Part shown: piece by piece, positions 7,376 to 32,000 of the stretch
How positions within the stretch are numbered: the stretch's first letter is position 1
How the letters are laid out: the number at the start of each line of letters is the position of its first letter
Assembly (NCBI GenBank): GCA_963677105.1
Contig: OY781871.1
Location: 30,001 to 62,000, forward strand
DNA from: Candidatus Saccharimonadota bacterium
GTDB lineage: Bacteria; Patescibacteriota; Gracilibacteria; UBA4473
DNA: 32,000 nt
Reading direction: 5' to 3'
Made by a program: the position numbers and the translations under genes
The notes under the pieces: generated by a model
What the model saw: the letters and a program-made list of their open reading frames with translations, nothing else
What the model was told of the DNA's origin: nothing
The model's database searches: none

Positions 7376-7395
7376 ATATGTGTGTGTATTTGTCA

Positions 7396-7991: not shown

Positions 7992-8657
7992 TCAGAATAA
8001 GAATTCTTCAAGTTTCAATACAACATCTCGAACTGTTGAGAGCGTTTCGATAGGTAATTTTTCTTGTTTTTCATAAAATATTTCTGGCGGACTTCTTCGT
8101 AAAAATTCACATACTTGGCGCGCTTTATTTGAAAGATTAATGGAATCGTTTTCAATGGATTCGCTAGAAAATAATTTAGACTCAGGCTGGAAAAAACAGT
8201 TTTGTCGTATGGAATCAAATCGAGGACAATCTCCTGTGTTTTGTAATAATCTCATTCGAAATGCAACATCTGCCCAAGAAGCATTTTGTAAATCTATTCC
8301 GGCAAACCAAGAAATAATTTCTGTAAAAAATATATCATCTGGACGTTCTTCTGGCAGTATTTTTAACAACTGTGAAATCCAATTCCATCCAATCTGGTTC
8401 GCCTCTAAAGAAGATTCCAATCCGGAAAATAATGTAGTAGTTTCAATTGTTTTTAATGATTTTGATGACCTCCCTTGAAAGATTTGAATCTCTAACAATC
8501 GGAAAAAATCTACTTCTGCTCGTTTTTTTGATCGAGCAAACTTTTTTGAAAAGACGGAAACTCTCCCCCATTTTGAAGTAAAAAATTCTAATACAGCATC
8601 ATCATTCGCTAATAAAGTTCTTCGTAATAAAATTGCTAATGTTTTCTGTTCACCCAT
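7992..8657 (-). CDS. recO: DNA repair protein RecO
   Basis: N-terminal OB-fold-like pattern (AILLRRTLLANDDAVLEFFTSKWGRVSVFSKKFARSKKR...FRLLEIQ). Length is about 220 aa. ATG at 8657. Confidence 0.65.
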   Translation of the reverse strand: MGEQKTLAILLRRTLLANDDAVLEFFTSKWGRVSVFSKKFARSKKRAEVDFFRLLEIQIFQGRSSKSLKTIETTTLFSGLESSLEANQIGWNWISQLLKILPEERPDDIFFTEIISWFAGIDLQNASWADVAFRMRLLQNTGDCPRFDSIRQNCFFQPESKLFSSESIENDSINLSNKARQVCEFLRRSPPEIFYEKQEKLPIETLSTVRDVVLKLEEFLF

Positions 8658-8659
8658 TT

Positions 8660-9502: not shown

Positions 9503-9903
9503 TTTTCTTTAGTGTAACGAAAATGTGACGATTTGAAAAACTCAGGAAAATATTTTTCTGCTCTGAAAATCTCAAGATCTGGGAATTCTTTTTTTATAAG
9601 ACGTTCATCGGCTCTTTGATCAAATCCCAAAAGTAAAATATTAGGAGATTCCTCATGCAATGTTTGAATAAAATCTCCGTCTTCTCTCCCCAATCGTATT
9701 TTTGTATGTGGTAACATTTCTTCTTGTAAACGAACAAGTCTATCTTCTTCAGAGTAAAAAGGGTCACGTCCACGAATTCGTCGAACGGTTATATCTGTTG
9801 CAACGACAACTGTCATTTCTGTTGCCTTCTTTGTCGCATTCCATAACAACCATTGGTGACCAATGTGTAATGGATCAAATGTTCCCGCAACAAATATTTT
9901 CAC
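9499..9903 (-). CDS. Cytidylyltransferase-family nucleotidyltransferase (HxGH motif)
   Basis: MKIFVAGTFDPLHIGHQWLL carries the (T/H)xGH nucleotidyltransferase signature at the N-terminus. GTG start at 9903. The stop overlaps the ftsX ATG (ATGA). The substrate cannot be told from sequence alone. Confidence 0.6.
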   Translation of the reverse strand: MKIFVAGTFDPLHIGHQWLLWNATKKATEMTVVVATDITVRRIRGRDPFYSEEDRLVRLQEEMLPHTKIRLGREDGDFIQTLHEESPNILLLGFDQRADERLIKKEFPDLEIFRAEKYFPEFFKSSHFRYTKEK

Positions 9904-10000
9904 GAAAATATTGTACTCAATTTTAGTAAAAAATCATTTTATAAGTCCTTAAGGTAATTGAAACTTTATTTCTATAAGAATTTCTGGCACACTTTCCTCA

Positions 10001-10906
10001 ATGAATTTCTCTATTGAAAAAAATGTTCATCTTTCCGATATTACCTACTTTGGTATCGGTGGGAAAATAGACGAACTTATTCGAATTTCAGATATAACAA
10101 TGCTTCCTGAGATTTGGGCAGAAACTATTGCGCTCAAACTCCCCTATTTCATTCTCGGAAGTGGTTCAAATCTCGTTTGTTCTGACGCTGGGTTTCGAGG
10201 ACGAATATTTATTATTGATGCAAAAGAAAGCAACTGGCGTGAAAACATTGTTTCTGTTGATATGGGAAAAAATCTACAGGAATTTATACTGGAAACTGCA
10301 GAACATGGCTTTGCTGATTTTATAAACTTGTCCGGTATCCCTGGAACACTCGGTGGAGCAATTCGTGGAAATGCGGGAGCTTTTGGTAGTGAAATAAGTG
10401 AGCGACTTGAATCTGTTCAGTTTTGTGATGAAAATGGAATAATTCAAACGATTCCTGCCAATAAATGTGAATTTGAATACCGAGAAAGCATTTTTAAGAA
10501 AAACCCACAATGGTGCATTCTTCAAGCGACATTTTTACTTCAAGAAAAAACAAAAAAAGACACTGCAATTACTGTAGCAAAAAAACTCATTCAAGAACGA
10601 TGGAGTAAATATCCTTCTGGAAAATGTGGTGGAAGTTTTTTTAAAAACCCAACAAATGTTCCCGAAGATGTGAAACCATTCGCCGGTTGGTTATTAGAAA
10701 ATTCTGGTGCAAAAGGTGACGCTATCGGTGGGGCTAAAATTTCAGAAAAACACGCTAATTTTCTTATGAACGCAAAAAACGCAACACAACAAGACGTAAT
10801 CGCTCTTGCAAAAAAATGGAAAAAAATTGTGTTAGAAAAATATAATGTCACTCTCGAACCAGAAGTAGTTCTTGTCAGTAAATACGGAAAAAAAATTGAA
10901 ATTTAA
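10001..10906 (+). CDS. murB: UDP-N-acetylenolpyruvoylglucosamine reductase
   Basis: FAD-binding N-terminal motifs (TYFGIGGK, LGSGSNLV), GIPGTLGGAIRGNAGAFG and the C-terminal GGAKISEKHANFL. Confidence 0.9.
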   Translation: MNFSIEKNVHLSDITYFGIGGKIDELIRISDITMLPEIWAETIALKLPYFILGSGSNLVCSDAGFRGRIFIIDAKESNWRENIVSVDMGKNLQEFILETAEHGFADFINLSGIPGTLGGAIRGNAGAFGSEISERLESVQFCDENGIIQTIPANKCEFEYRESIFKKNPQWCILQATFLLQEKTKKDTAITVAKKLIQERWSKYPSGKCGGSFFKNPTNVPEDVKPFAGWLLENSGAKGDAIGGAKISEKHANFLMNAKNATQQDVIALAKKWKKIVLEKYNVTLEPEVVLVSKYGKKIEI

Positions 10907-13298: not shown

Positions 13299-14297
13299 AT
13301 GGAATTACCTCCTACTCCTGTTGCATCAGCAGAACCTACTAACGAAAGTGTTCCACCAGCTCCAGCACCTGCTCAAACTAATACCGCTGTTCCAGAAACT
13401 CCTACAGCTCCTGAAGCAGTTCCCGATACGCCACCAGCTTCTGTAAGAACAGGATCTATATTACCTAGATCAAAGCTAACAAAAGAAGACAAGCAAAAAC
13501 TCATTGAAACACAAAAAGAGACACGAGCACGACTTCTGTTGTTAAAAAAGATAGCTACAACTTTTTTAATTGTTTCTCTCGGGTGGTTTTTTTGGCTTCA
13601 AATGAATCTTAGTGAAAACAATTCTGTACTTTCCCTTTTCGGAATAACAGAAAATCTTGGACAAAAAATATCAAATATCAAAAAAAATAAAAAGAAATTT
13701 ACATTAGAAAACGTTACTATTGAAAATAATATTAAAAATTTGCAAAAACAGTTAGAAAGCAAGAATTATACTCGATACTCTAAAGAAATCCGAGATATAC
13801 GGGAAAAACAGCTCCAATGGTATGATGAAATTGATGCTGATGGAAATATTATATTTGGACTTACTGATGCTGTTCCACGTATGCAAGAATTCTTCAATGA
13901 TCGAAATTATAAAGATGAAAACAACATTTTATCTGGAAAACATGGTGATATTCAAATTAAGAACTTACAAGTTTCTCGCGATGGAATAAATTTTTCCGTT
14001 GATGGTTCTCAAATATTGGGAAAAGTATTTTTTCTAAATATTGAATTTGTTGAGATGGTTAACTCTTTCCCTTTCTTGAAAAATGGAAAATTAAATCAAT
14101 TCTCACGTCAAAAAAATAAAGACGATGATGATTCTATGAATTTCAGTGTTAAATTAGAATTACAAGGTCCAGATGAAGTTGATCCTGCTGATAAGCGATT
14201 TCACGAATATTTGGATTGGCTCAATGCTAAATCTGATACCAATATAACAGAAGAAATCGACTCAAAAACTTCTTCTACTCCTGAAATAAACGAATAA
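13299..14297 (+). CDS. Bitopic membrane protein, PilN-like candidate with Pro-rich cytoplasmic N-terminal extension
   Basis: A 50-aa Pro/Thr/Ala-rich N-terminus, then SILPRSKL (reminiscent of the PilN INLLP motif), basic stretch, single TM (IATTFLIVSLGWFFWL), coiled-coil-like segment and an external domain of about 180 aa. First gene of a tightly packed operon ending in pilB/pilC-like genes. Confidence 0.35.
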   Translation: MELPPTPVASAEPTNESVPPAPAPAQTNTAVPETPTAPEAVPDTPPASVRTGSILPRSKLTKEDKQKLIETQKETRARLLLLKKIATTFLIVSLGWFFWLQMNLSENNSVLSLFGITENLGQKISNIKKNKKKFTLENVTIENNIKNLQKQLESKNYTRYSKEIRDIREKQLQWYDEIDADGNIIFGLTDAVPRMQEFFNDRNYKDENNILSGKHGDIQIKNLQVSRDGINFSVDGSQILGKVFFLNIEFVEMVNSFPFLKNGKLNQFSRQKNKDDDDSMNFSVKLELQGPDEVDPADKRFHEYLDWLNAKSDTNITEEIDSKTSSTPEINE

Positions 14298-14299
14298 TT

Positions 14300-14929
14300 A
14301 TGACTTCTAATAAAACTGGCCTCAAAGCATTTCTCCCTACAATAATAGTAATTCTAATTGTTGTAGCATTTAATGTAGCAAAAGTAATCCCCGACACTGT
14401 TCGTTGGATAAATACAAGAAAAGAAGTACAAACTTTGACACAAAAATTAGAAATCATAAAAAAAGAAGTTGAAAAAAATAAAGAAGATGCAGATTCAGCT
14501 CAAGTGCAATTTGATGCGGAATCAAAAAATTATATTCTTGAAGAATCACAATTATTTCCAGAAAAATTCGACCCATACTATGTATCAAAAACACTTGAAT
14601 TATTTTCTATTCAATATTCACTTCTTACTGCAACATCAAGATTGAGAATTGAACGACTTTCTTTTTCAGGTGGAGGAGGGAAAACTGCTGTAATGCTTGA
14701 TATGTCTTGTACAGAAGACACATTAAAAGAAATAATAAAGTATTTTCAATCAGGAGATCTTCCTGAAGCAATGGTTACAAATACAAATCTTGATGCAAAC
14801 GATGTTGAATATTTGCAATCACATAAATTACCAATAGCACATATCGATTCGATTCGTGTTTCAGAAGCAAATGATTCAGAAATATACAAAAAAATATCAC
14901 TCAAAATATCTTTTTTCACGCAAAATTAA
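14300..14929 (+). CDS. Bitopic membrane protein, PilO-like candidate
   Basis: Short N-terminus, single TM (AFLPTIIVILIVVAFNVAKVI), coiled coil (TLTQKLEIIKKEVEKNKEDADSAQ), then an alpha/beta domain of about 120 aa. There is a 2-nt gap to the previous gene and a 3-nt gap to the ATPase gene. Confidence 0.35.
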   Translation: MTSNKTGLKAFLPTIIVILIVVAFNVAKVIPDTVRWINTRKEVQTLTQKLEIIKKEVEKNKEDADSAQVQFDAESKNYILEESQLFPEKFDPYYVSKTLELFSIQYSLLTATSRLRIERLSFSGGGGKTAVMLDMSCTEDTLKEIIKYFQSGDLPEAMVTNTNLDANDVEYLQSHKLPIAHIDSIRVSEANDSEIYKKISLKISFFTQN

Positions 14930-14932
14930 AAA

Positions 14933-16177
14933 ATGGCAGAATATAAGCTCGATACACAAGAACTACAAAACTGTATTGTTTCAGGAAATATTCCTGAACT
15001 TATCGAACGAAGTTTAAAAGTAGCACTGCAATCTGGCGCATCTGACGTCCATATCGAACCAGGGAAAAATATGGTACGAATTCGTATCCGTATTGATGGA
15101 ATATTACAAGTAATAGTTGAATATCCTCTCAATCTTCATTCTGGAGTTATTTCAAAATTGAAGATTATGTCAAACCTAAAAATAGATGAAACACGAGTTC
15201 CTCAAGATGGACGAATTAACACTTTTATTGGAGTAACAGAAGTAGATCTTCGTACATCAACTCTTCCTACGCCAAATGGAGAAAAAGTTGTAATGCGTAT
15301 TTTAGATAAATCAAAAAAGATTCCTACACTTGATCAACTCGGAATTGTTGGACACAATCGTGCGTTGTTCGAAGAAGCAATTTCTGAACCAAACGGAATT
15401 ATTCTTACTTCTGGACCGACAGGATCTGGAAAAACTACAACTATGTATGCAGCAATGCAGGTTTTAAATCAACCAGAAGTAAACATTATGACGTTTGAAG
15501 ATCCAATTGAGAATCAAATGGAAGGGTTAAATCAAAGTCAGGTTCGAGCTGATATTGGATATACGTTTGCAAATGGTCTTCGTACTGCTTTACGACAAGA
15601 TCCCGATATTATCATGGTAGGAGAGATTCGTGATAAAGAAACTATTGATATTGCTATTGAGGCATCTCTTACTGGACACTTAGTATTATCAACTATTCAC
15701 ACGAATTCTGCCATTGAGACGATTACGCGTATTTTGAACATGAAAGTGCCGGACTTCTTATTGACGGCTTCTATAAACTTGATTATGGCACAACGTCTTG
15801 CACGAAGACTTTGTGATAAATGTCGTGTCCCACAACCACTGAGTATGGATGCTCAAAAACAACTTCAAGAAGCATTCGAGTTTTTTGAACCATATGAAGG
15901 ATTTGATATGTCTATATTAAATGAACCAGTTTTTTATGGACCAAGTAAAGCTGGATGTGCTGAATGCCAAGGAAAAGGATATAAAGGCCGTGTTGGATTA
16001 TACGAAGTTCTTCCTTTTTCTGATGAATTAAAGAAAGCTATTCTTGAAGGAACTCCTTCATTTGAATTGAATAAAATGGCACAAAAACAAGGAATGATAA
16101 CTTTAGAACAAGACGGTTTAATAAAAGCAGCACAAGGACTTACTTCTCTTGAAGAAGTATATAAACTCGTTAAATAA
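14933..16177 (+). CDS. pilB: Type IV pilus / type II secretion / competence-pilus assembly ATPase (PilB/GspE/ComGA family), short form without N1 domain
   Basis: Walker A GPTGSGKTT, Asp box, Walker B DPDIIMVGEIRD, His box TGHLVLSTIHTN and the tetracysteine Zn motif CDKC...CAEC typical of extension ATPases. At 414 aa it lacks the long N-terminal domain. Confidence 0.88.
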   Translation: MAEYKLDTQELQNCIVSGNIPELIERSLKVALQSGASDVHIEPGKNMVRIRIRIDGILQVIVEYPLNLHSGVISKLKIMSNLKIDETRVPQDGRINTFIGVTEVDLRTSTLPTPNGEKVVMRILDKSKKIPTLDQLGIVGHNRALFEEAISEPNGIILTSGPTGSGKTTTMYAAMQVLNQPEVNIMTFEDPIENQMEGLNQSQVRADIGYTFANGLRTALRQDPDIIMVGEIRDKETIDIAIEASLTGHLVLSTIHTNSAIETITRILNMKVPDFLLTASINLIMAQRLARRLCDKCRVPQPLSMDAQKQLQEAFEFFEPYEGFDMSILNEPVFYGPSKAGCAECQGKGYKGRVGLYEVLPFSDELKKAILEGTPSFELNKMAQKQGMITLEQDGLIKAAQGLTSLEEVYKLVK

Positions 16178-16179
16178 AT

Positions 16180-17379
16180 ATGAAAATCCCATCTATACCT
16201 TCTGCTCCTGCTGCACCACTTGACAATGGTGACGGAATTTTATTGGATTTGAAACATGAAGAAGTTATTGAAAAAGATAGTATAAAACCTGGAATAAATT
16301 TTGATTTTCTTAATCAACTAAATACATGGATGATTATGAATTCACCTGTTCCACTAAAAGACAAACTTCTTTTCTTTGAGCTTTTAGTTTCAGTTCTTCA
16401 TGCAGGAATTCCCGTCGGAGAAGCGCTTCGATTACTGGAAAAACAAACAAAAAACGAACGAATGAAAATCGTTCTTGGAGAAATGGGAAAAAGCATTAAT
16501 ACAGGATCAAGTCTTGCCGAGTCATTACGTGAGCAATTAGGTGTTTTTGATGAAGCTACTTGTTCTATTGTACAAGCGGGTGAAACTTCAGGAAAATTAA
16601 ATGAAGTGATGAAAGAGTTGGTAGTTCAATATGAACGAATGGATAAAATTCGTAAAAAAGTAAAGGCTGTAATGATGACACCAATTGTCACTATTTCTGT
16701 CATGATTATTGCTGCTGTTGCAGTATTGCTATTTGTTATTCCACAATTAACAGAAATATTCGGTGATGCTGATTTACCACTTCCTACACAAATAATGATT
16801 GCTGCAAGTAATACTTTAATGAAACACTGGCCCATCATTTTTGCTGCTGCTGCTGGAGTAATGGGAGCATTTTCTTATTGGAAAAAAACAAAAACAGGAA
16901 ATCTTCAATGGACTATTATTCGTTTACATATTCCGGTTATTGGAGGATTTATGAAAAAAATGGTTCTCAGTAAAGTTATGCGTATTTTTTCTTTTCTAAT
17001 TGCTTCTGGTGTCCCAATAATTGAAGGATTACGAATTTCTTCTCGTGTAGCAGGAAATGTTGTATATGAAAAAAAATTATTACTTGCTGCAGACGATCTG
17101 ACTCGCGGTATAGAAATTTCCGAAAACTTTTCTGACGATGAAAGTTTATTTCCACAAATGTTAGTAAGCATGATTGCTATTGGAGAAAAAACAGCATCTC
17201 TGGGAAATGTATTAGGAAAAGTTGCTGACTTTTATGATGAAGACTTAGATCGAAGTGTTGGATCATTATCAAAGATGATGGAACCAATAATAATGGTAGT
17301 TATGGCAATCGGTGTTATTTTCCTTTTGATGGCAATTTTCCTTCCAATACTAGGAATGAACGATCATATTATAAGCTAA
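16180..17379 (+). CDS. pilC: Type IV pilus / T2SS platform protein (PilC/GspF/ComGB family)
   Basis: Two GspF-type repeats (FFELLVSVLHAGIPVGEALRLL... and VMRIFSFLIASGVPIIEGLRIS...) and three TM segments. Confidence 0.88.
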   Translation: MKIPSIPSAPAAPLDNGDGILLDLKHEEVIEKDSIKPGINFDFLNQLNTWMIMNSPVPLKDKLLFFELLVSVLHAGIPVGEALRLLEKQTKNERMKIVLGEMGKSINTGSSLAESLREQLGVFDEATCSIVQAGETSGKLNEVMKELVVQYERMDKIRKKVKAVMMTPIVTISVMIIAAVAVLLFVIPQLTEIFGDADLPLPTQIMIAASNTLMKHWPIIFAAAAGVMGAFSYWKKTKTGNLQWTIIRLHIPVIGGFMKKMVLSKVMRIFSFLIASGVPIIEGLRISSRVAGNVVYEKKLLLAADDLTRGIEISENFSDDESLFPQMLVSMIAIGEKTASLGNVLGKVADFYDEDLDRSVGSLSKMMEPIIMVVMAIGVIFLLMAIFLPILGMNDHIIS

Positions 17380-17481
17380 GAAGTTGAATTTTCTTCGATC
17401 GCAAGTAGACTTCTTTTTGTATAGAAGATTTTTTATCAACACTTAATTTCGTGAGATATTTTCTTCTCAATTTCATTGGAA

Positions 17482-18819
17482 ATGATAAAAAAAATAATTG
17501 TTATCGGAAATGGTGGACGAGAACACGCCATTTGTTTTGCTTTACATAAATCTCCACAGTCTGTTGAAATATGGAATATTGCAACAGCAGTGAATCCTGG
17601 AATTGAAGATTTGGGAGTACATATAAAAATTGTAAATACTCTTGATGATTTTGACACGTTAAAAAATCTTATTAAAGAAATTGATGCAACGCTCGTAATT
17701 CCTGGTCCGGAAGCAGTTCTTGTTGCTGGTATAACTGATCTTTGTAATACGCTTTCTATTCCGTGTTTTGGTCCTACAAAACAATGTTCTCAACTTGAAA
17801 GCTCAAAAAGCTGGACGCGGAATCTTTTACTAAAATATGGAATCAAAGATGCTTGTCCTGATTTTATTGTTTCTACAAAAGACCAAGATCCTTTACGAGA
17901 AAAATTTTTTACAAAATGGGATGGACAAGTGGTAATAAAAGCTGATGGTTTGCTTGGAGGAAAAGGTGTACTTGTTGCTGGAGATCATTTTGAAACTTTT
18001 GAAAAAGCTGATAAGTTTGCTCGTAAATCTATTGAAAAATTTGGTCGCGTAGTGCTAGAAGAAAAACTTATCGGTATTGAATTTAGTCTCCTTTCAGTAG
18101 TAGATGGAGAAAATATATTGGATTTTCGTGCCTGCCAAGATCACAAACGTGTCGGAGAAAATGATACAGGCGATCAAACGGGAGGAATGGGAGTTATCTC
18201 AGATGAAAAAGGAGTTCTCCCCTTTCTCACAGAAAAAGATATTGCACTTGCTCACGATATAACTGTACGAACTATGAAGGCTGTAAAAAAAGAAACTGGT
18301 GAGGATTTTAAAGGAATTATGTATGGTGGATTTATTGCAACAAAAACAGGTGTTCAGCTCATTGAATACAATGTTCGATTCGGAGATCCTGAAGCACTCA
18401 ATATTTTAGCAACACTTGAAACAGATTTTGTAGATATTTGTGAATCAGCTTGTGCAAGAAATTTAAAACAAATTCCTACTATTAATTTTTCTCCTGTTGC
18501 AACAGTACAGAAGTATTTGTGTTCTCCTGGATATCCAAGTGCGCCACAAAAAGGAATTGAAATAAATCTCCCGACAGAATGGAATCATAATCATGCAGAA
18601 TTATTTTTTGCCGGAGTAAAAAAGGAAAATGATAAACTTCTTTCAACCGGAGGACGTGTTCTGGGTGTAATTGGTTTTGGAGACAATCTTAATAATGCAA
18701 ATATGTACTGCGAAAAAATGATGGAAAAAATTGAAAGTGATTTATTTTATCGACCAGATATTGGAACTGAATCCCTTACTCATTCCCGAGTTGAAACCAT
18801 GTCCAATTTACGTTCATAA
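17482..18819 (+). CDS. purD: Phosphoribosylamine--glycine ligase
   Basis: IIVIGNGGREHAI N-terminus, ATP-grasp core (VVIKADGLLGGKGVLVA), YNVRFGDPE and GGRVLGV. I prefer the ATG at 17482 to the TTG at 17476. Confidence 0.9.
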   Translation: MIKKIIVIGNGGREHAICFALHKSPQSVEIWNIATAVNPGIEDLGVHIKIVNTLDDFDTLKNLIKEIDATLVIPGPEAVLVAGITDLCNTLSIPCFGPTKQCSQLESSKSWTRNLLLKYGIKDACPDFIVSTKDQDPLREKFFTKWDGQVVIKADGLLGGKGVLVAGDHFETFEKADKFARKSIEKFGRVVLEEKLIGIEFSLLSVVDGENILDFRACQDHKRVGENDTGDQTGGMGVISDEKGVLPFLTEKDIALAHDITVRTMKAVKKETGEDFKGIMYGGFIATKTGVQLIEYNVRFGDPEALNILATLETDFVDICESACARNLKQIPTINFSPVATVQKYLCSPGYPSAPQKGIEINLPTEWNHNHAELFFAGVKKENDKLLSTGGRVLGVIGFGDNLNNANMYCEKMMEKIESDLFYRPDIGTESLTHSRVETMSNLRS

Positions 18820-24646: not shown

Positions 24647-24719
24647 TTCACAAAGAATCAATTGACTTTCCGCTTTCTCCATGAAAAAATTCTCCTGTTA
24701 TTTCTTAAAATACAAAAAA

Positions 24720-25118
24720 ATGACAGACAAAAAGTTGGCATGGCTTCCTGAGCTCATTCGATTCGGTGGAGCAATAACAGGAATTGTTTTAACTGCAATT
24801 GGAGGTGTTATGCTTATTAACGCAACATTAAAATTATATGTATTTCAATTCCAAACAGAAGCATACCAAATAGTAACAGATGAAGAGTGTCGATACGATC
24901 ACAACCGATATGCTGATAAAGTGGAAGATGTAGAATTTACAAAACCATACAAAAGAACTGCTGAAGAAATAGAATTATGTAAAAAAGAACGATTAGAAGA
25001 AAACAAAATCCGATTTGAACGAAGAAAAAAAGAAAACATGGTAGACGGACTTGCTATGCTTCTTGTAGGAATTCCTTTCTGGATCATTTTCTGGAGAAGA
25101 AAAAAGTCGAAGAAATAA
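24720..25118 (+). CDS. Small two-TM membrane protein of unknown function
   Basis: TM1 is FGGAITGIVLTAIGGVMLI. The charged loop of about 70 aa contains two Cys. TM2 is LAMLLVGIPFWIIFW, followed by the tail RRKKSKK. The start is either the ATG at 24720 or the ATG at 24681. Confidence 0.5.
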   Translation: MTDKKLAWLPELIRFGGAITGIVLTAIGGVMLINATLKLYVFQFQTEAYQIVTDEECRYDHNRYADKVEDVEFTKPYKRTAEEIELCKKERLEENKIRFERRKKENMVDGLAMLLVGIPFWIIFWRRKKSKK

Positions 25119-25141
25119 ATCATTTCCATTGATATAAAAAA

Positions 25142-25167
25142 AGCGAGAATAATCTTCTCGCTTTTTT
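25142..25167. terminator. Bidirectional rho-independent terminator between convergent genes
   Basis: AGCGAGAA, loop TAATC, TTCTCGCT. It is flanked by an A run on the 5' side and a T run on the 3' side, so it reads as stem plus U-tract on both strands. It closes the minus-strand giant-TPR-trx unit. Confidence 0.8.
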
Positions 25168-25185
25168 ATTTACTGTATTTTATTC

Positions 25186-25494
25186 CTACGCTAACAATGA
25201 CAACAATTGTTCTTCTGTTTGCATTCCTACTGCTTCATTTGCAACTTCTCCATTTTTAAAAACTTTAAATGCTGGAATAGACATAACTCCATATTCTGAA
25301 GAAACTTCTGGAGCTTGATCGACATCTATTTTTACTACTTTCGCTCCATCTGGAAGCTTTTTTTCTAAGTTTTCAAGCACTGGCATCATTCCCTGACATG
25401 GTCCACACCAAGTAGCAAAAAAATCAACAAGAACTGGACCTGAAGCTTTTAAAACTTCTGTTTCGAAATCGGTTGCGGTAATTTGATGTACCAT
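25186..25494 (-). CDS. trxA: Thioredoxin
   Basis: 102 aa with the canonical active site WCGPC and cis-Pro context MSIPAF. Confidence 0.93.
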   Translation of the reverse strand: MVHQITATDFETEVLKASGPVLVDFFATWCGPCQGMMPVLENLEKKLPDGAKVVKIDVDQAPEVSSEYGVMSIPAFKVFKNGEVANEAVGMQTEEQLLSLLA

Positions 25495-25563: not shown

Positions 25564-26160
25564 CTACGCTTCGGAATTATTACTTAAAATTTTCAAAAAA
25601 TTACGACATTCTCGTGCTTGATCTGAATTGGGCGCGAGTTCAATAACACGACGAAATGATTTTTGCGCTCGCTCATGTTGCTCTGAATTCATATAACAAA
25701 CTCCCAAGTCACATAAAATGTTTGGATCATTTGGAGAAAGGTTTTTTGATCGTTCCAATAAAGCTAATCCCTGAACAGATTTTCTATTTTGATTGTGATA
25801 TCCCCATCCTAAACAACGTAAAATCTCAGGATGATTTGGCGATTGATTATCCGCTACTTGCAGTTCTTTCACACTGGCTGTCCATTTTTGTTGCTGAGAA
25901 AAAAGAAATCCCAATAAGTAATGTGCATTCGCAGATTTTGGAGAAAGACGAATCGCTTCACGAAGCGCTTTTTCAGCCTTTTCAAAAGATTTCATAGAAA
26001 GAAAATTATCTCCCAATTCCTCATATGCTTCAAAACATTGCGGATAACTTAAAATTATCTTCTCAAGTAATTTAATCGCTGTATCAAAATCTCCCGCAAG
26101 TTTTGCGTCCTCTGATTGTGCAAGCATATCGATAACAAATTGATCATATTCCATCAACAC
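25564..26160 (-). CDS. Tetratricopeptide-repeat (TPR) protein, no signal peptide
   Basis: Repeated 34-aa A/Y/L patterns (e.g. AYEELGDNFLSMKSFEKAEKALREAIRLSPKSANAHYLLGFLF..., LRCLGWGYHNQNR..., LCDLGVCYMNSEQHERAQKSFRRVIELAPNS). GTG at 26160 or ATG at 26154. The start lies 9-15 nt downstream of the giant ORF stop. Confidence 0.8.
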   Translation of the reverse strand: MLMEYDQFVIDMLAQSEDAKLAGDFDTAIKLLEKIILSYPQCFEAYEELGDNFLSMKSFEKAEKALREAIRLSPKSANAHYLLGFLFSQQQKWTASVKELQVADNQSPNHPEILRCLGWGYHNQNRKSVQGLALLERSKNLSPNDPNILCDLGVCYMNSEQHERAQKSFRRVIELAPNSDQARECRNFLKILSNNSEA

Positions 26161-26169
26161 ATTATATCG

Positions 26170-29100
26170 TTAAAACGCTTTTTTTTCAAGCTTTGTATCG
26201 GGATTTTGCAAAACCTCTTTTGTTTCGTCAACTCTTTCTGTGATTTTAATCTTTCGTGGAACAGGATGTGAAAATTGTGCCAATAATATCTTATTTCGCC
26301 ATATTTCAAATACGACTGGAGCCGTGTCGTCCACTGACACTTGTGTCTGTAAATAAATGTCTGGAACGAGAGACTTAAATTGTCCCCAAGAATCTATTGT
26401 TCCTAAAACTTGTTGTTTCTCTTCGTCCCAAAGTTCTGATATTCCATCCACTCCTTTCCTCCATAAAATTGAATCTTTTTTAGCATCTGCAAGTTGAACT
26501 TCTGTTTTAGAAACTTTTGTGTCCAATAACTTTTCTTGTTTTGGTAAAACAAATGTTGATTGTTCCGGTGCAACAAATATAAGTTTTGCTGCTTCCTCCC
26601 CTGTATTTTCACGTAAGGAAATATTTAAACTTTTTTCATCAGTAGCAGTTTGTACTGTTTGTGTTAATTTTTCATCCAGTAAAACTGGCCTCCCTGTTTC
26701 TAACACTTCTGCACGAGATTTTTTTGTATATTTATCTCGTAACACAGCTCCACCTGTACGTGAAAGATTTTCTAAAACAAATGATCCATTCTCTTCAGAG
26801 GTAGCAGTTCTTGATAAAATTTCTTTCCGTCCGTCTCTCTCTCGAATAAACCAAACCTCTATTCCTTCTTCACCAGAAATAACATTTCCTGATACACGTA
26901 AATCACGGACACTCGCTTCACGAAGTTCTAACTCCGGCGCTTTTACGGTTATTGTAATTGATAAAACTGATTCATTTCCCGACACATCTGTCACATGTAA
27001 CACTACAGGAACAACTCCAACATGATGTTCCGCTGGAAGTAAAATCTTCAGTAATTCTTGTGGGGAATTTTCGTTCGATTGAGAATCAATCATTGTTTCT
27101 CCTCTTACTTCCCACCACACACGCTCAATTTCTTGATTATCTCGTGATCCTGATGCATCCAATTCTATTTTTTGTCCTAATAAAACAGATCGTTCTGTTC
27201 CTCGACGCAATTCTAAACGAGGCGCTTCTACATCATCTCCAGATTGTGGATCATGAAGAAGGTTTTTCGATCGAGTCCAACTTTTATTTTCTTTGTCAAA
27301 CGCTATTAATTGTCCGTAATAATTTCCACGAGAAAGTTGTTTAAACGATGAGATAAGATCTTTTCGAGAATTAAATTGGTGTAATTCATATTGTTCCCCT
27401 CCCCACAATGTGATATTTGTATCATCAAATAAATCTAATTCCACTTTATCATTTGTTCCTAATTCCAAACGCATGCCAGAAAAGAAATAATCTTTTTTCT
27501 TTGGAATAAGCCTCTTTTCGTTCGCAAATTCAAGGTATTGCACATCTCCACGAGACAAACAAACTTCTGCAAAATCAACAACTGTTTCTTCTCCTTTTCG
27601 GAGTTCAATTTCTCGCTCTTCCGCAACCTGCCCCTTTCTCGCCAATGTTTTTACTAATAAACGAGATTTTTCTGCTTTCCCAACAAAAATTGTTTCTTCT
27701 GCAAAAAATGGCAGTTGTGTGTCGCCATCATCGCATTGTGCAGCACTAAATTTTTCTATTGTTTTTAATGGAGAACCATACATTACCGGTGATCCTGTTA
27801 CAGATTTTATTTGTGCCCCTGCTGAACGAATTTCATATTTTGTCATAGGGGGACGAACTAAAAATCCGATTCGACGCCATATTTTTGATTTTCGTTTTGA
27901 AGCAGGTACTGCTGATTCAAAAATACGATCTGGACGTTCGGAAAGAATCCATTCAAAATATGCCGTATCATTTGTATCTGCTGGTAAAAAACGAAGCATT
28001 GAACCATCTGCAGAAACTGATGAAGTTACTGTTTCACTTGGAGTAAATCCATTGGCAAATCTTGAAAGATCCCATTCTAAAAGTTTTTGGGGAACTTCAA
28101 AATCATCATCTTCTTCCTCTGGTAGAACACGACGTTTTATAAATAATTGTGTATCAATCGCATACAACATTTCGTCGACTCCATCACTATCCAAATCTAC
28201 TCGAGATGAAGTAAAACGACGTCCTTGCAACGGGAAGTTCGTAACTGTATTTGTCTTATTTTCTGCTGAATCAAACCATAATATTCTCGGTTCAACTTGC
28301 ATTTCACCCTGTGGATCAGGCACGGAATCCATATTGTAATTCATTGGCACACTCTGTGGATAATCTTCAATTGAAAGTATTTTTGGCTCTGTGGAAACTT
28401 GCCAAGACCGCATATGTGCAGGAACTATTCCGCTTTCTAATGCAAATGTTTTAATCGGTTCCATATCAATTTCTAATTCTTCTTCAGAAAAAACATTTCC
28501 TTCTGGCAGTAATGCTATTGTTTTTGTTGCACTTGAATTTTGTGCTAACGACATTGGTTCCATTGGTAATGGAAAACACGCTGAATCTGTTATTATTCCT
28601 TTCGAAAGATTACTTAATTGTGTCGTAATACAATTAAACATTGCGGCAGAAGCTTCTAATAGTGCTACTAATGATGGTAATCCTTGTGCAAATTCCCATT
28701 GCAACTTAAATGATAACGGAGGTAATATTAATTTCGGTATTGGTGGTAATTTTGCTAAAAAATCTAATGGCAATAATAATGTTCTATTTGTTGCATTTAC
28801 AACAGACATTGCAACCATCCACTCTGGAACTGGAACAAGCCCCTGACAAATAAGCGACAATAATCCCAAAATGTATTTTGGTACTATCATGATAAGATTT
28901 GGAACTTTTAGAAAATCTGGAAAAACCGGAGGTTCAATAAGTGATGGTAATTGAGGTAAAACCATTGGAGGCATCACAAGCGCAACGTCTGGTAATATTG
29001 GTGCTTTGGGCAATACTGGCAAAACAGGAATCAATGCAATTATCGTTTCCAATAAATTTGTTAACGTATCTAAAGATGCTAGCACATCTGGGATTTCTGG

Positions 29101-32000
29101 GATTTCGGGGATATTTGCTAATAATGCTAATAACCCTTCTAATGAAATATTTCCGGCAAAAATTTCTGCCAATAATCCATTTAACATTCCTTCTAGGGAA
29201 GAAGCCGTATTCAATGAATCCCATAGAGCTTGTAATATCCCAGCAAAAATTCCTTCAAATTTTTCACTCAATTCTAACTCTGGTAACGGCGGAATAAGTC
29301 CACTCGCAGAAACTTCTACTTTATTAAATTCTAATTCCGGAACTTCTAATTTTAATCCAAGCTTCAAAGCAGATAAGTCCACTTCCACATCAGGAACTTG
29401 TGGCATTGGAATGATCGGGAATTTCACAAGAGACAAAAGAATATTCTTGAGCCATGCAATCATAGATCCTCTCGACATAGATCCTCCATTTGCACTAGTA
29501 GTTGCTTTTGAGAATTTTTTTAACATTTCAGGAATTTCTGTCCAAGCCTTAATAGTCTTTTTCGTTTCTTCAACAAATTCCTCCCATTTCTCTACTGCAC
29601 GCTCATTTCGATTAATCCATTCTACCCAGTACTCATTAATGACTTCCGTCATCTTTTTTATATCTTTGTATAAAGCTTTGAGTTTCTTTGGAATCTTTTT
29701 CAGTTTTTTAATTTCTTTCACATATGACTCCAATGCTTCAATGTTTTTTTCTACCGAAGTCACAAACTCTTCCCACTTCTTTTCAAGTGGTTCAATGGTT
29801 AATTCTTTAAATTTTTCTTTTAAATCATCTTTCAATCCCTTTAAGAGTTCTCTCATTTTCTCTTCTTGTTCTGCTGCAGCTTCATCTAATGCAGCTTGAC
29901 GTTCCGCCTTTGCTGCTTCTGCTTGAGCCTTTAATTCAGCTTTTTTAGATTCAGCTGCATTTTCTACATCTGTCGAATCTGAAGCATTTTCTCCTGGTGG
30001 AATTTTTGAATTCAAAATTGCGAGAATTACTTTCCCATCTCGAATTGCCAACACATCCATTTCGTTTGCCGTGTTTTTCAATGTGTCAACATCTCCCTGT
30101 AAATCGGCATAAAACTCCTGTTGTTTTTTCAATACATCATTAAATTTTTGAGTTAAAAAAGCTTTTGCTTCTTGGTTTTTTTGTTCAGTAATTCCTGTTT
30201 TTATTTCTTCAAGAGCAGCTAAGCTTCTCTTTAGTTCTTCCAAATTGTCCTCTCCAATTGCAATAACACCTGCTTGTTTTTCTATTTCAGGGTTTTCAGC
30301 ACTTTCCCTCATTCTAGCAGTGGCCTTTTCTACTTCAGAATTCCATTGATTTGGAGTTGGATCTGTTAATGAATCTACTCGTTCTATTTCATCTGTCATA
30401 TAAGACTGAAGCGATTCATATTTTAACTTTATCAATGTTCTTCCCAATGTTGCTGGCAACGATTTTATTCTTAATATTGTTCCCATTGAATTATTCAATG
30501 AAAGTCGGATAACTAATCCTATTGCTGTCGCAGTGTTTGTGTTAGCAGTACATTCCTCTGTTGATTTATTCCATGTTCCATTTTCCAAACAATTACATCC
30601 TAATTCCATCCATTTCATCTTCTCTTTATGCAACTTCTCTTTTGCGTCTTTTTTCCATTTTTTTAATTCTTCTTTGAGACGCTCAAATTGTCCATCCGGA
30701 AAATAAGGATAATTTATGGTTATCTTTTTTCTTTTTACATCAACAAATGGAGATTTATTTAGACACGATAATGTTGGTTCTCCCTCCTCACACGGGATCG
30801 ATTTAAATTTTGGAAATTTTATTTTGAATTTTGGAAATTTGAAATTCGTAAATTCTCTCCACTGATCTTGCACCCATTGACTCAATATATCTGCCGCTTT
30901 TATTTGACTATTCGTTGGTAAACTTTTTCCTTTAATAATAATTGGAAGTCCTGATTGAAATGTAATTCCACTTCCTGAAGGCGCAAAGAGTTGTTGTAAA
31001 AATTCTTGTGCTGGTGTTGCTTCATTTGCTGGTTCTAAATCAGTACATGAAGTTTGTGTATCTTCCGATGATGATCCTGATTCAGAATTTCCTCCAGCAG
31101 ATGCTCCTCCACTACCAGAAGAAAATTGTGGAATAATCACAAAACATTGAGGAGGAAATGGAATTCCTGTTGGAGACATTGAAGGATCAATAACTGGTCC
31201 TCCACAAATTGCTATTCCTACTTGTAATGACGTCGTTGGAATAATATATAATCGAAATAATGAAGTTGGCATTGGACCTGCTCCCACTGGAGGAAGTTGC
31301 GGAGCTACCCAAAAAATCGGAAATCCAATCGCTGGAACAGGAATTGGTATTGCATATGGTGGGATATAAATACTTTGTGGTCCTGGAGCAAGAAACGCCA
31401 CTGATGGAATTGCATCCAACCAAGATGCTACTTTTTTAGCACCTCCCAACATGTTTAAAAGTGCTTCACCCACGGATGGTATAGCAAACATTATTGGTAA
31501 TCCATCATCTGTTTGTTCTGTACCTAAACAATCCAAAACATCATCGGCCGTTGCTTCTGCATCAAAATCTGATGGCAACAAATCAGGAAATACCTTTTTT
31601 GTTTCACGACTACTCATTCTTAAATATGGAGATGTCGGAGCATCTTTTACTGCGTCTGAACTTCTAGCAGGAACCGTTCCATTATTTTCCCCTGAAATAA
31701 ATTGTATTGTTTCAGCTGTTCCATCTGAATGCCATGCAACGGCTACATCATCTCGTGCATCATTTTTTTCAAAATCACTTACAAAATATCGTATCGGAAG
31801 AACTTCTTCCGCTATAGAATCCCAGTTAAAAACAATATTCGCATGAGCCGGAATATTTCCAATCGTAATTTGTATCACTTTCGGCAAAACTTTTATTTCG
31901 GGCAAAGTTTCACAAGAATCACATACAAATGAAGTTTCATCAAACTGAAATCCTACCGATTTAGGAAGAACAAACTCTCCTTCAGAATACGCTTGCTGAT
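26170..32000 (-). CDS. Giant multidomain protein of unknown function, partial (N-terminus outside window; at least 1,942 codons in window)
   Basis: Single open minus-strand frame from TAA (26170-26172) to the window edge. The track start at 31905 is a TTG, and the 31 codons upstream (..QQAYSEGEFVLPKSVGFQFDETSFVCDSCET) contain no stop. Recognisable pieces are a PKD-like domain (26938-27228), a carboxypeptidase-regulatory-like beta domain (26761-26928), an FG-GAP-like Ca loop (28156-28203) and a K/E coiled coil (29506-30423). Confidence 0.85.
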   Translation of the reverse strand, partial: QQAYSEGEFVLPKSVGFQFDETSFVCDSCETLPEIKVLPKVIQITIGNIPAHANIVFNWDSIAEEVLPIRYFVSDFEKNDARDDVAVAWHSDGTAETIQFISGENNGTVPARSSDAVKDAPTSPYLRMSSRETKKVFPDLLPSDFDAEATADDVLDCLGTEQTDDGLPIMFAIPSVGEALLNMLGGAKKVASWLDAIPSVAFLAPGPQSIYIPPYAIPIPVPAIGFPIFWVAPQLPPVGAGPMPTSLFRLYIIPTTSLQVGIAICGGPVIDPSMSPTGIPFPPQCFVIIPQFSSGSGGASAGGNSESGSSSEDTQTSCTDLEPANEATPAQEFLQQLFAPSGSGITFQSGLPIIIKGKSLPTNSQIKAADILSQWVQDQWREFTNFKFPKFKIKFPKFKSIPCEEGEPTLSCLNKSPFVDVKRKKITINYPYFPDGQFERLKEELKKWKKDAKEKLHKEKMKWMELGCNCLENGTWNKSTEECTANTNTATAIGLVIRLSLNNSMGTILRIKSLPATLGRTLIKLKYESLQSYMTDEIERVDSLTDPTPNQWNSEVEKATARMRESAENPEIEKQAGVIAIGEDNLEELKRSLAALEEIKTGITEQKNQEAKAFLTQKFNDVLKKQQEFYADLQGDVDTLKNTANEMDVLAIRDGKVILAILNSKIPPGENASDSTDVENAAESKKAELKAQAEAAKAERQAALDEAAAEQEEKMRELLKGLKDDLKEKFKELTIEPLEKKWEEFVTSVEKNIEALESYVKEIKKLKKIPKKLKALYKDIKKMTEVINEYWVEWINRNERAVEKWEEFVEETKKTIKAWTEIPEMLKKFSKATTSANGGSMSRGSMIAWLKNILLSLVKFPIIPMPQVPDVEVDLSALKLGLKLEVPELEFNKVEVSASGLIPPLPELELSEKFEGIFAGILQALWDSLNTASSLEGMLNGLLAEIFAGNISLEGLLALLANIPEIPEIPDVLASLDTLTNLLETIIALIPVLPVLPKAPILPDVALVMPPMVLPQLPSLIEPPVFPDFLKVPNLIMIVPKYILGLLSLICQGLVPVPEWMVAMSVVNATNRTLLLPLDFLAKLPPIPKLILPPLSFKLQWEFAQGLPSLVALLEASAAMFNCITTQLSNLSKGIITDSACFPLPMEPMSLAQNSSATKTIALLPEGNVFSEEELEIDMEPIKTFALESGIVPAHMRSWQVSTEPKILSIEDYPQSVPMNYNMDSVPDPQGEMQVEPRILWFDSAENKTNTVTNFPLQGRRFTSSRVDLDSDGVDEMLYAIDTQLFIKRRVLPEEEDDDFEVPQKLLEWDLSRFANGFTPSETVTSSVSADGSMLRFLPADTNDTAYFEWILSERPDRIFESAVPASKRKSKIWRRIGFLVRPPMTKYEIRSAGAQIKSVTGSPVMYGSPLKTIEKFSAAQCDDGDTQLPFFAEETIFVGKAEKSRLLVKTLARKGQVAEEREIELRKGEETVVDFAEVCLSRGDVQYLEFANEKRLIPKKKDYFFSGMRLELGTNDKVELDLFDDTNITLWGGEQYELHQFNSRKDLISSFKQLSRGNYYGQLIAFDKENKSWTRSKNLLHDPQSGDDVEAPRLELRRGTERSVLLGQKIELDASGSRDNQEIERVWWEVRGETMIDSQSNENSPQELLKILLPAEHHVGVVPVVLHVTDVSGNESVLSITITVKAPELELREASVRDLRVSGNVISGEEGIEVWFIRERDGRKEILSRTATSEENGSFVLENLSRTGGAVLRDKYTKKSRAEVLETGRPVLLDEKLTQTVQTATDEKSLNISLRENTGEEAAKLIFVAPEQSTFVLPKQEKLLDTKVSKTEVQLADAKKDSILWRKGVDGISELWDEEKQQVLGTIDSWGQFKSLVPDIYLQTQVSVDDTAPVVFEIWRNKILLAQFSHPVPRKIKITERVDETKEVLQNPDTKLEKKAF
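30802..30843 (-). repeat. Short tandem coding repeat FKFPKFK-I-KFPKFK inside the giant ORF
   Basis: Minus strand reads TTC AAA TTT CCA AAA TTC AAA ATA AAA TTT CCA AAA TTT AAA. At DNA level the unit AAATTTCCAAAATT occurs twice. Confidence 0.9.

Follow-up and report, generated by a model that had tools for sequence, protein, structure and literature searches.

A giant gene of a Gracilibacteria-type CPR bacterium belongs to a large unnamed protein family and may encode part of a fast-evolving surface attachment fibre

INTRODUCTION

A single gene takes up 5.8 of the 32 kb of the window (18%, as the first-pass annotation had estimated), the window being the whole stretch of 32,000 nucleotides of contig OY781871.1 that was analysed, and it raises the question of what a protein of this length is and what it does for the cell that encodes it. 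To our knowledge, host recognition and attachment by ultrasmall CPR bacteria are little understood outside Saccharibacteria. Sizeable extracellular proteins similar in kind are already on record from these lineages. The "large extracellular proteins" that Peribacteria encode vary between strains and are thought to mediate attachment (PMC4736985). The membrane proteome of Vampirococcus contains giant proteins of up to 4,163 residues with DUF11, integrin and PKD domains, and a link between these and a fibrous surface has been drawn (PMC8080830). No bacterial phylum is more enriched in proteins of more than 5,000 residues than Peregrinibacteria, and none of these proteins has a COG assignment (PMC11573180).

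THE OPEN FRAME AND ITS MISSING HALF

On the minus strand, an uninterrupted run of 1,942 sense codons extends from position 31998 to 26170, closed by a TAA and open on the 5' side past the window edge. Two features define the frame:

26170..31998, minus strand: giant gene, C-terminal 1,942 codons and TAA stop at 26170-26172; 5' part outside the window; colinear, 45% identical, to residues 2017-3982 of the relative P0003
31903..31905, minus strand: TTG, the first start-type codon in the open reading frame list; an internal Leu codon, with homology to the relatives L005 and P0003 extending upstream

The frame is real and coding. Given the base composition of the window, stops are expected on the minus strand at 0.071 per codon, so that 1,942 open codons would arise with a probability of about 1e-62. 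That the frame is non-coding, an orphan or an assembly chimera, as had been considered earlier, is effectively refuted by this figure, by colinear homology over the full length to independent assemblies with conserved synteny, by a search for tandem DNA repeats across the frame that found none, and by an even GC content of 0.33-0.39.

The 31 codons upstream of the TTG at 31905 contain neither a stop nor a Met codon, and the suspicion that this TTG is not the true start proved correct: it must be internal, because homology to relatives persists up to the window edge. P0003 (3,982 residues), the nearest full-length relative, is colinear with the whole window protein at 45% identity over 1,992 columns with 5% gaps, and window residue 5 aligns with its residue 2017. 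On a Candidatus Gracilibacteria contig, L005 is 57% identical to window residues 1-513 and continues upstream for a further 1,958 residues to an N-terminus, MPRAIHRSFKNWMSFMLIFCVLSPSVSPVFA|AP, that reads as a Sec signal peptide. Because relatives carry about 1,960-2,010 extra upstream residues, the true start probably lies about 6 kb beyond the window. On alignment with these relatives, the window protein is the C-terminal half of a predicted secreted protein of about 3,900 residues, of which some 2,000 are missing.

A LARGE UNNAMED FAMILY

By homology, the window protein is one of many giant proteins that form a large unnamed family in Gracilibacteria/Peregrinibacteria-type CPR (Patescibacteria). 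The family was revealed by an exhaustive profile search, which returned 413 clusters at E <= 1e-3, of which 261 also reach E <= 1e-30; almost every one is 2.5-6 thousand residues long, and the family numbers at least 413 clusters at 50% identity. Word-indexed protein searching is weak on such a low-complexity query: the full protein yielded two distant matches and missed the 45% identical relative, an alignment of segment D yielded no matches, and an alignment of segments E and F yielded no more than two fragments, 60% identical and about 350 residues long. Related loci were recovered with narrower alignments (four genome loci and one metagenome locus). The expectation that the protein would fit no described family held in searches of Pfam, NCBIfam and PDB sequences, none of which gave a match to one.

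Full-length members share an N-terminal organisation. A hydrophobic N-terminal stretch is present in 107 of 123, and L005, P0003 and P0001 begin with a Sec signal peptide, have a conserved domain at the N-terminus and run for about 2,000-3,500 residues before the first shared segment. Named members include P0007 (MBT3349252.1, 4,693 residues), P0004 (MBA4336967.1, 5,011 residues) and HRY90744.1, which is titled [quoted passage not shown]. Pfam modules found in relatives are FG-GAP_3, with true FG-GAP matches in their N-terminal halves, DUF11, Invasin_D3/Big_1 and Ig-like Glyco_hydro2_C5, together with C-terminal TSP3_bac and SLH. A candidate reading of the N-terminal head domain as peptidase C25-like was rejected after negative Pfam and PDB profile searches.

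SEGMENTS OF THE WINDOW PROTEIN

A segment-by-segment jackhmmer run over 156 family proteins divides the window protein as follows:

31594..31998, minus strand: segment A, residues 1-135, conserved, with the CxxC pair C26/C29; 129 of 156 proteins by jackhmmer
30589..31593, minus strand: segment B, residues 136-470, a Pro-rich hydrophobic beta unit, a Gly/Ser disordered linker and a helix with QWVQDQWRE; 156 of 156 proteins
29767..30588, minus strand: Lys/Glu-rich helical, coiled-coil-like insert, residues 471-744; found only in the window protein and P0003
28354..29766, minus strand: segment D, residues 745-1215, the most widely conserved part; 156 of 156 proteins
27229..28353, minus strand: segment E, residues 1216-1590, a DxDxDG-type loop followed by an all-beta domain; 142 of 156 proteins
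26173..27228, minus strand: segment F, residues 1591-1942, a PKD-like domain followed by two or three beta-sandwich domains, from AF2 model 2

Segments A, B, D, E and F are colinear in 129-156 of the 156 proteins. The Pro-rich hydrophobic modules, Gly/Ser linker, FKFPKFK stretch and cysteine pairs listed in the first-pass annotation are all present in the translation; the "mosaic" that they were said to form is not idiosyncratic, as five of the six segments keep this order across the family and the 274-residue coiled coil is the one lineage-specific part. Sequence comparison makes this coil a lineage-specific insert, which the window protein and P0003 carry between B and D at 26% identity to each other. 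The family median for the gap between B and D is 24 residues, with inserts of 170-290 residues in a minority, and the long helices of the insert are predicted at low to moderate confidence in AF2 model 1.

At the N-terminal side, segment A overlaps a known module in one relative: in P0005 a Pfam DUF11 match (residues 1934-2021) overlaps the segment A equivalent (residues 1965-2068). Segment B has the invariant columns R249, Y251, C265 and C285 (alignment A4) and is modelled at pLDDT 50-79 (AF2 model 1) with no PDB match. Segment D combines Trp-bearing helices (W805, W819, R843), the motif FPIIPMPQVPDVEVDLS, LPxLP proline-rich stretches, an amphipathic helix and PVPEW...TNR; the profile region 557-1003 is the top-scoring one in most family matches. 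Residues of about 915-990 form Leu-rich amphipathic helices that are an insert of the window sub-family and not family-wide, and two Cys motifs of the family, CxGGC in B and CxxC in D, are absent from the window protein. The invariant Trp/Arg helices, the LPVIPMPxxPD motif, the LPxLP spacers and PVPEW...TNR that mark the B-D core have no Pfam or PDB relative, and neither sequence nor fold comparison of the core with the PDB returned one; the B-D model is of low confidence (pLDDT 56, pTM 0.36), with long helices and proline-rich stretches. A candidate transmembrane helix at residues 1032-1055 (Kyte-Doolittle about 1.8) was rejected, as its counterpart in relatives is amphipathic and rich in Lys.

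Segment E is the most conserved by identity, at 56% to P0003 and 43% to P0007. Its DxDxDG-type, FG-GAP-like loop, DLDSDGVDEMLYA (residues 1268-1280), shows conservation across the family (D53, D57 and K73 in alignment A6), is modelled at pLDDT below 60 and has no Pfam match, and its all-beta domain at residues of about 1345-1555 (nucleotides 27334-27966) reaches pLDDT 85-94 in AF2 model 2, likewise with no Pfam match. A FecR-like domain guessed in E from motifs found no Pfam support and was dropped.

The E+F model (mean pLDDT 72) ends in a string of Ig-like and PKD-like beta-sandwiches. The PKD-like domain that had been proposed for the C-terminal region is supported by fold at residues of about 1595-1690 (nucleotides 26929-27216), where Foldseek matches the ColG PKD domain (4aqo/4tn9) at TM 0.77 and rmsd 2.6 A, and weakly, below threshold, by sequence (PDB profile E 0.002-0.008; Pfam K319L-like_PKD E 0.006, 16.9 bits against a cutoff of 27). 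The carboxypeptidase-regulatory-like domain named beside it did not hold up, as the PF13620 profile gave no match at E <= 5 against the whole protein or the piece at residues 1690-1800. The model there is a generic beta-sandwich, a fold class that is compatible with such a domain, the assignment being unproven. Fold matches to E+F as a whole are the tandem Ig-like arrays of SiiE, C5a peptidase, GhpA, SbsB and RbmA, which are generic (TM about 0.1, 8-10% identity), and the viral fold library matched only generic FN3/Ig arrays.

The protein ends in VLQNPDTKLEKKAF and the stop. Past the F equivalent, the C-terminal part runs on for more than 200 residues in 104 of 129 members, and 20 of 129 stop at F as the window protein does; a TSP3/SLH extension is present in about 80% of members, and SLH occurs in P0002, P0005 and the P0019 cluster. 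In the window protein itself, Pfam gave no SLH domains, the C-terminus has no LPXTG/sortase anchor, the last 800 residues contain no hydrophobic stretch, and the whole sequence has no transmembrane helix.

GENE ORDER AND DIVERGENCE

Downstream of the giant gene lie two conserved neighbours:

25564..26160, minus strand: TPR-repeat protein gene, directly downstream of the giant gene; Pfam TPR families; likely ATG at 26154
25186..25494, minus strand: thioredoxin gene, the second conserved downstream neighbour; Pfam Thioredoxin E 1e-29; syntenic in the relatives' loci L004 and L009

The likely ATG of the TPR gene is 15 nt past the giant gene stop, its product has no signal peptide, and L004 and L009 have it in the same place, 68-72% identical. 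The search for homologues and their neighbourhoods that the first-pass annotation had suggested thus yielded, besides the family itself, a locus order, giant-TPR-Trx-L1-L11-NusG-DnaX, that the window has in common with L004 and L009; the P0003 locus follows it too (giant, TPR, thioredoxin, L1/L11/NusG). Between sub-families the conserved neighbours vary.

In syntenic relatives the giant protein is 32-45% identical, against 65-93% for the flanking housekeeping genes, and by this comparison its divergence far outpaces theirs. Gene size had been read as a sign of "strong selection", which these identities do not bear out. A fixed locus in several related genomes, combined with divergence several times faster than that of the neighbours, is what would be expected of a host-range determinant.

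A PUTATIVE ATTACHMENT FIBRE

In our view the protein is probably a fast-evolving attachment fibre or adhesin on the cell surface of an episymbiotic bacterium of the CPR, a functional reading to which we give a probability of roughly 0.6. A cell-surface role had been the best guess at the outset, and it gains from the Sec signal peptides of relatives, the beta-sandwich C-terminal third and the TSP3/SLH modules of other sub-families; the accompanying suggestion of a fusogen found no support, there being neither a transmembrane helix nor any match to membrane-active folds. Exported by the Sec route, the protein would be retained outside the single-membrane cell as a long fibre. In most sub-families the C-terminal TSP3 and SLH extension would tie the C-terminal end to the cell wall, and because of this tether the window-encoded part would be the cell-proximal stalk, in which helical rods combine with stiff proline-rich spacers and Ig-like beads. 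The other, N-terminal half, with its conserved head domain, Ig-like arrays and FG-GAP/DUF11 modules, would project outward and bind the host or partner cell, and the helical insert between B and D, which varies in length, may set the reach of the fibre. We infer the orientation, C-terminus proximal to the cell, by extrapolation from the SLH-bearing paralogues. As the window sub-family has no SLH extension, its anchoring must presumably use another contact; its retention on the cell with no SLH, LPXTG or transmembrane anchor is an assumption.

The protein could instead be an envelope scaffold or S-layer-type component that structures the cell's own surface (spacing, rigidity, cell-cell stacking) and does not bind a host. 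Many family members have SLH domains and names to match, SbsB is among the E+F fold matches, and the giant gene sits amid cell-envelope and housekeeping genes (MurG, FtsW, MurB); fibrous material has also been described between stacked Vampirococcus cells (PMC8080830). We nevertheless regard this as rather unlikely, since the window protein itself lacks SLH, the fold matches are those of generic Ig-like arrays at a TM of about 0.1, and fast divergence suits interaction with a host or phage better than a self-assembling lattice. Known S-layer proteins are, in addition, far smaller than the giant protein; they likewise evolve quickly. That the protein serves the type IV secretion or type IV pilus apparatus of Patescibacteria as an accessory adhesin might be suggested by L001, where the homologous giant gene is about 6-10 kb from a T4SS_pilin gene and a VirB4/TraG-like ATPase, by PilB-like and PilC-like genes in the window 9 kb off, and by a survey of Patescibacteria T4SS that reported no adhesin found for it (PMC12102498). 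Such closeness is weak evidence in genomes this small; the window contains no T4SS genes, none lies near the giant gene in L003, L004, L006 or L009, so that L001 alone has them close by, the window protein matches no PrgB-type T4SS adhesin domain, and the variation of neighbours between sub-families adds to what makes this reading very improbable.

The B-D core, as the most constrained and distinctive part, could be other than a passive stalk. That it is a new functional machine of Gracilibacteria/Peregrinibacteria-type CPR bacteria, engaging or breaching the host envelope in epibiotic feeding, for example, while the Ig-like arrays provide no more than reach, is a distinctly doubtful proposal; if true, the family would be this lineage's key host-interaction apparatus. 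A contact-dependent attack device, in which the helical, proline-rich and hydrophobic core engages or perturbs the host envelope in epibiotic feeding and the Ig-like arrays reach and hold in the manner of a grappling hook, we judge improbable. Epibiotic predators occur among the relatives in this lineage (PMC8080830), the core resembles no known adhesin stalk for all its strong conservation, and grappling-hook fragments of GhpA from the predatory Aureispira are among the fold matches. That similarity is generic, however, at a TM of 0.1, and the Leu-rich amphipathic helices in D that would lend themselves to such a role belong to the sub-family insert. Pfam, NCBIfam and PDB sequence searches gave no toxin, lipase, peptidase or pore-forming domain, the actinoporin matches to model 1 are non-significant (E about 1), and a transmembrane segment is lacking.

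RELATION TO KNOWN SYSTEMS

Homology to an established adhesin or toxin family (RTX, Rhs, MARTX, LapA-type) had been put forward, combined with a stop or frameshift just beyond the window, as a finding that would overturn the original reading, and none emerged: for RTX/MARTX/LapA-type features (GGxGxD HemolysinCabind repeats, T1SS signal) Pfam and NCBIfam gave no match over the whole protein at E <= 1, and for Rhs/YD-repeat toxin features they gave none either, the C-terminal region folding as beta-sandwiches. SiiE, LapA/RTX-type adhesins and GhpA of Aureispira are likewise very long, secreted and partly built of tandem beta-sandwiches, whereas RTX and BIg repeats and a T1SS signal are lacking in the window protein, whose matches to these proteins are generic. 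Those giant adhesins belong to diderms, while the source organism is a monoderm CPR bacterium and its B-D core has no counterpart there. The PKD domains of the clostridial collagenases ColG/ColH (4aqo, 4tn9, 4jrw) are similar over a single domain (TM 0.76-0.77, rmsd 2.6 A, 23-24% identity); this PKD-like bead accounts for about 95 of the 1,942 residues, and no collagenase catalytic module accompanies it.

Closer in lineage are the giants of Ca. Peribacter riflensis (PMC4736985) and Vampirococcus lugosii (PMC8080830), which come from the same broad lineage and are likened here by description only: they have a signal peptide, FG-GAP/integrin, DUF11 and PKD domains, a proposed role in attachment and strain-level variability. 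These two studies define no conserved A-F core. With its own unnamed family the window protein has the colinear A-B-D-E-F segments in common, and flanking genes as in L004 and L009; it differs from most members in its insert and in stopping right after F. The family to which the window gene belongs comprises hundreds of clusters of secreted proteins of 3,000-6,000 residues, with about 1,000 residues of conserved core that Pfam, NCBIfam and the PDB leave unannotated. Definition of the A-B-D-E-F core should allow "hypothetical" giants to be annotated and host-specific variation to be tracked, and should help to choose targets for structural work or for genetic studies of relatives that can be cultivated, Vampirococcus and Absconditicoccus among them.

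MINOR OBSERVATIONS AT THE LOCUS

One further feature lies at the end of the giant gene:

26161..26189, minus strand: promoter-like TTGAAA-17-TATAAT (11/12), over the giant gene's last codons and upstream of the TPR gene; from a consensus scan only, which is not evidence of function

The adjacent thioredoxin was considered as an extracellular disulfide partner and set aside, as it is a stand-alone thioredoxin of 102 residues that we take to be cytoplasmic. Genetic code 25 was also considered for the source organism and rejected, since TGA terminates 4 of the 31 genes.

Reading frame and extent of the giant gene

Translation of the minus strand from 31998 to 26170 yields 1,942 sense codons closed by a TAA, and the frame listed at 26170..31905 starts with a TTG, upstream of which all 31 codons are free of stops and methionine, exactly as the first-pass annotation had described coordinates and frame. 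Since the base composition of the window gives a stop frequency of 0.071 per codon on this strand, the chance of 1,942 consecutive open codons is about 1e-62. The GC content is even along the whole gene, a search for tandem DNA repeats in it found none, and for practical purposes the frame can be taken as no artefact.

P0003, the nearest full-length relative (3,982 aa), shares 45% identity with the window protein (1,992 alignment columns, 5% gaps); its residue 2017 aligns to window residue 5, and the two proteins have a common C-terminal end. On L005, a Candidatus Gracilibacteria contig whose product is 57% identical to window residues 1-513, the reading frame extends upstream by 1,958 more residues, and the protein begins with MPRAIHRSFKNWMSFMLIFCVLSPSVSPVFA-AP, which reads as a typical Sec signal peptide. 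Because of the P0003 alignment and the upstream frame on L005, the window gene is predicted to encode the C-terminal half of a ~3,900-residue protein, and the TTG at 31905 is an internal codon rather than a start, bearing out the earlier placement of the true start past 32000. A hydrophobic N-terminal stretch is present in 107 of 123 full-length family members.

A family of giant proteins with a conserved core

The earlier view that no described family could be assigned held up, as the whole window protein had no significant match in Pfam, NCBIfam or PDB sequences. A word-indexed protein search returned only two distant giants, P0001 (3,133 aa) and P0002 (2,616 aa), each colinear with several stretches of the window protein. 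An alignment, A1, was made from window residues 1-1200 and the corresponding parts of these two proteins, and its profile, scored exhaustively against 1.84 billion cluster representatives, matched 413 proteins at E <= 1e-3, 261 of them at E <= 1e-30. Nearly all have 2,500-6,000 residues, with the matched region beginning at around residue 2,000-4,000; judged by these sequence matches, the window protein is evidently not an orphan. The named related loci belong to Ca. Gracilibacteria, the 'Patescibacteria group' and Ca. Peribacteria, and names within the family include 'hypothetical protein [bacterium]' and 'uncharacterized repeat protein (TIGR01451 family)'.

Segments of the window protein and their matches when each was iterated against 156 retrieved family proteins
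A: residues 1-135; 129/156
B: residues 136-470; 156/156
CC (Lys/Glu-rich helical insert): residues 471-744; window protein and closest relative only
D: residues 745-1215; 156/156
E: residues 1216-1590; 142/156
F: residues 1591-1942; 144/156

The order of the segments is constant across the 156 proteins, and CC was found only in the window protein and its closest relative; the architecture is therefore conserved and not the mosaic proposed at first, with the family order A-B-D-E-F interrupted by one lineage-specific insert. Between B and D the family has a median spacing of 24 residues; a minority of members carries helical inserts of 170-290 residues at this site. The Lys/Glu coiled coil is a sub-family insert, placed at a hot spot.

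In full-length members a head domain of ~450 residues, strongly conserved, comes after the N-terminal hydrophobic stretch; its motifs are LVSILVE..., LYFxG, VGxVPLPVV, FPxTDFE and EIWHGVIR. It had no match in Pfam or PDB sequences; at most, it may resemble peptidase C25-type domains.

Regions encoding the N-terminal head domain on contigs of relatives
L005, 4069-5568
L004, 10001-11500
L001, 10001-11500
L006, 1007-2506

The N-terminal halves of relatives also contain Ig-like modules (Invasin_D3, Big_1, Glyco_hydro2_C5), FG-GAP and DUF11. On contig L003 the giant gene occupies two ORFs (1-2706 and 2830-10680), together colinear with P0001; this may reflect a genuine split of the gene, a frameshift or an error in sequencing.

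Structure of the core

The AlphaFold2 model of E and F, from a 14-sequence alignment (mean pLDDT 72), contains an all-beta domain modelled with confidence (pLDDT 85-94) at residues ~1345-1555, then a PKD-like domain at ~1595-1690 and further beta-sandwiches after it. Foldseek against the PDB aligned this model with tandem Ig-like arrays, all at TM ~0.1 (complement MG domains, C5a peptidase, SiiE, the GhpA grappling hook, SbsB and RbmA), and matched a single domain cleanly to the PKD domain of ColG (TM 0.77, rmsd 2.6 A, 23% identity). The alignment profile likewise matched ColG/ColH PKD domains in the PDB at E 0.002-0.008, and the Pfam PKD match was sub-threshold; the PKD-like domain of the first-pass annotation is thus supported by its fold and weakly by its sequence. 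The annotation's carboxypeptidase-regulatory-like label was unsupported by any profile.

The model of B-CC-D, for which 18 sequences were aligned, has low confidence (mean pLDDT 56, pTM 0.36). It suggests a small beta unit about the invariant R249/Y251/C265/C285 and a Gly/Ser linker that is disordered. In it, helices run for 70-90 residues each, the 'PDVEVDLS' motif would form a beta-hairpin, and the proline-rich LPxLP stretches lack structure. The model matched no PDB fold (best E 0.7), nor did its sequence profile match the PDB. Hydropathy gave no convincing transmembrane helix in the window protein; the sole candidate, aa 1032-1055, was rejected, being Lys-rich and amphipathic in relatives.

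A probable surface fibre or adhesin, and rival readings

The best-supported reading is that the giant protein is exported by Sec and forms a fibre or adhesin on the surface of an episymbiotic CPR cell, and orthologues provide direct evidence for its membership of the giant family and its extracellular destination. Because paralogues bear SLH domains, the C-terminal end would be cell-proximal. The helical and proline-rich core may form a stalk, and the N-terminal half could be the host-binding part. This picture agrees with published remarks on large, variable extracellular proteins of Peribacteria with a possible role in attachment (PMC4736985), on Vampirococcus, whose surface is fibrous and whose giant proteins, of up to 4,163 aa, have DUF11/integrin/PKD domains (PMC8080830), and on Peregrinibacteria, which among bacterial phyla have the most uncharacterised proteins >5,000 residues (PMC11573180).

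An envelope or S-layer scaffold is one rival. TSP3_bac and SLH follow segment F in many relatives, one cluster bears the name 'S-layer homology domain-containing protein [Candidatus Gracilibacteria bacterium]', and 104 of 129 members run >200 residues past F. Twenty end at F, as does the window protein, whose C-terminus as read from the sequence has no LPXTG or hydrophobic anchor. The protein might instead be a contact-dependent attack device using the B-D core, which is without known relative; that this core is an active machine engaging the host envelope we consider improbable. A third rival is an accessory adhesin of a T4SS or T4P; T4SS pilin and VirB4-like genes lie near the giant gene on one relative's contig only, L001.

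Giant secreted Ig-like/PKD-bearing proteins of this CPR lineage are a class already known, and homologues of the gene are already in public databases as hypothetical proteins. What is new is the conserved A-B-D-E-F core of ~1,650 residues, ~1,000 of which, in B, D and the greater part of E, are without relatives in sequence or structure. For the study of host attachment in these organisms the family offers a good target with clear limits.

Genomic context and divergence

The order downstream of the giant gene is shared with L004, the locus of P0003: giant, TPR (~195 aa), thioredoxin (~101 aa), DUF5671-like, then L1, L11, NusG and DnaX. L009, encoding P0007 (4,693 aa), is a third syntenic locus. 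Flanking genes of the window share 65-93% identity with their counterparts in L004/L009 (NusG 93/78%, L11 88/82%, TPR 72/68%, thioredoxin 68/66%), whereas the giant protein reaches just 45% and ~32-40%. Segment E is best conserved (56% to P0003, 43% to P0007) and the CC insert worst (26% to P0003, undetectable in P0007).

The TPR gene starts 15 nt past the giant gene's stop, and no signal peptide was found in its product. Just upstream of it lies a near-consensus sigma-70-like promoter match (26161-26189, minus strand, TTGAAA-17-TATAAT, 11/12), which overlaps the last codons of the giant gene. The thioredoxin and DUF5671-like genes are convergent, with a 13-bp hairpin terminator (25137-25167) between them; the small DUF5671-like protein (24681-25118, plus strand) has a weak DUF5671 match (E 1.8e-4, below cutoff) and is conserved in place in L004 and L009 (64-68% identity).

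Downstream of the giant gene, other sub-families have conserved genes of their own, three small ones in one (L001 19402-22483, L008 4215-7290; 292/362/373 aa) and five in another (L003 10687-14467, L006 16604-20389; 190/210/279/229/340 aa), with no Pfam matches in either set; these may be sub-family-specific partners of the giant protein. Around the P0001 gene, L001 also carries (regions 1-490, 25085-25459 and 28732-29402) a VirB4/TraG-like ATPase, a T4SS_pilin gene and a 1,854-aa alpha-2-macroglobulin-like protein, the last recalling the A2M-domain giants of Vampirococcus (PMC8080830).

The window has 35% GC and, since TGA terminates 4 of its 31 genes, uses the standard genetic code. It contains peptidoglycan-synthesis and division genes as well as those listed.

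Further features of the window
3-416, V-type ATPase subunit D
425-1582 (+), 385-aa protein with thrombospondin type 3 repeats and a discoidin (F5/8 type C) domain
3456-5021, PurF-like
5905-6990, PurM
13299-14297 and 14300-14929 (+), two ORFs without Pfam match
14933-16177 (+), PilB-like T2SSE ATPase
16180-17379 (+), PilC-like T2SSF
17476-18819, PurD

The purine genes fit the nucleotide-synthesis capacity, unusual for CPR, reported for Peribacteria (PMC4736985). The region 13299-17379, in which the two ORFs precede the PilB-like gene, looks like a type IV pilus/T2SS-like assembly cluster ~9 kb from the giant gene. The discoidin protein has a full-length homologue on the distant locus L001 (25448-26563, minus strand, E 9e-13), 6 kb from the giant gene, and may be a second surface protein recurring near the giant family.
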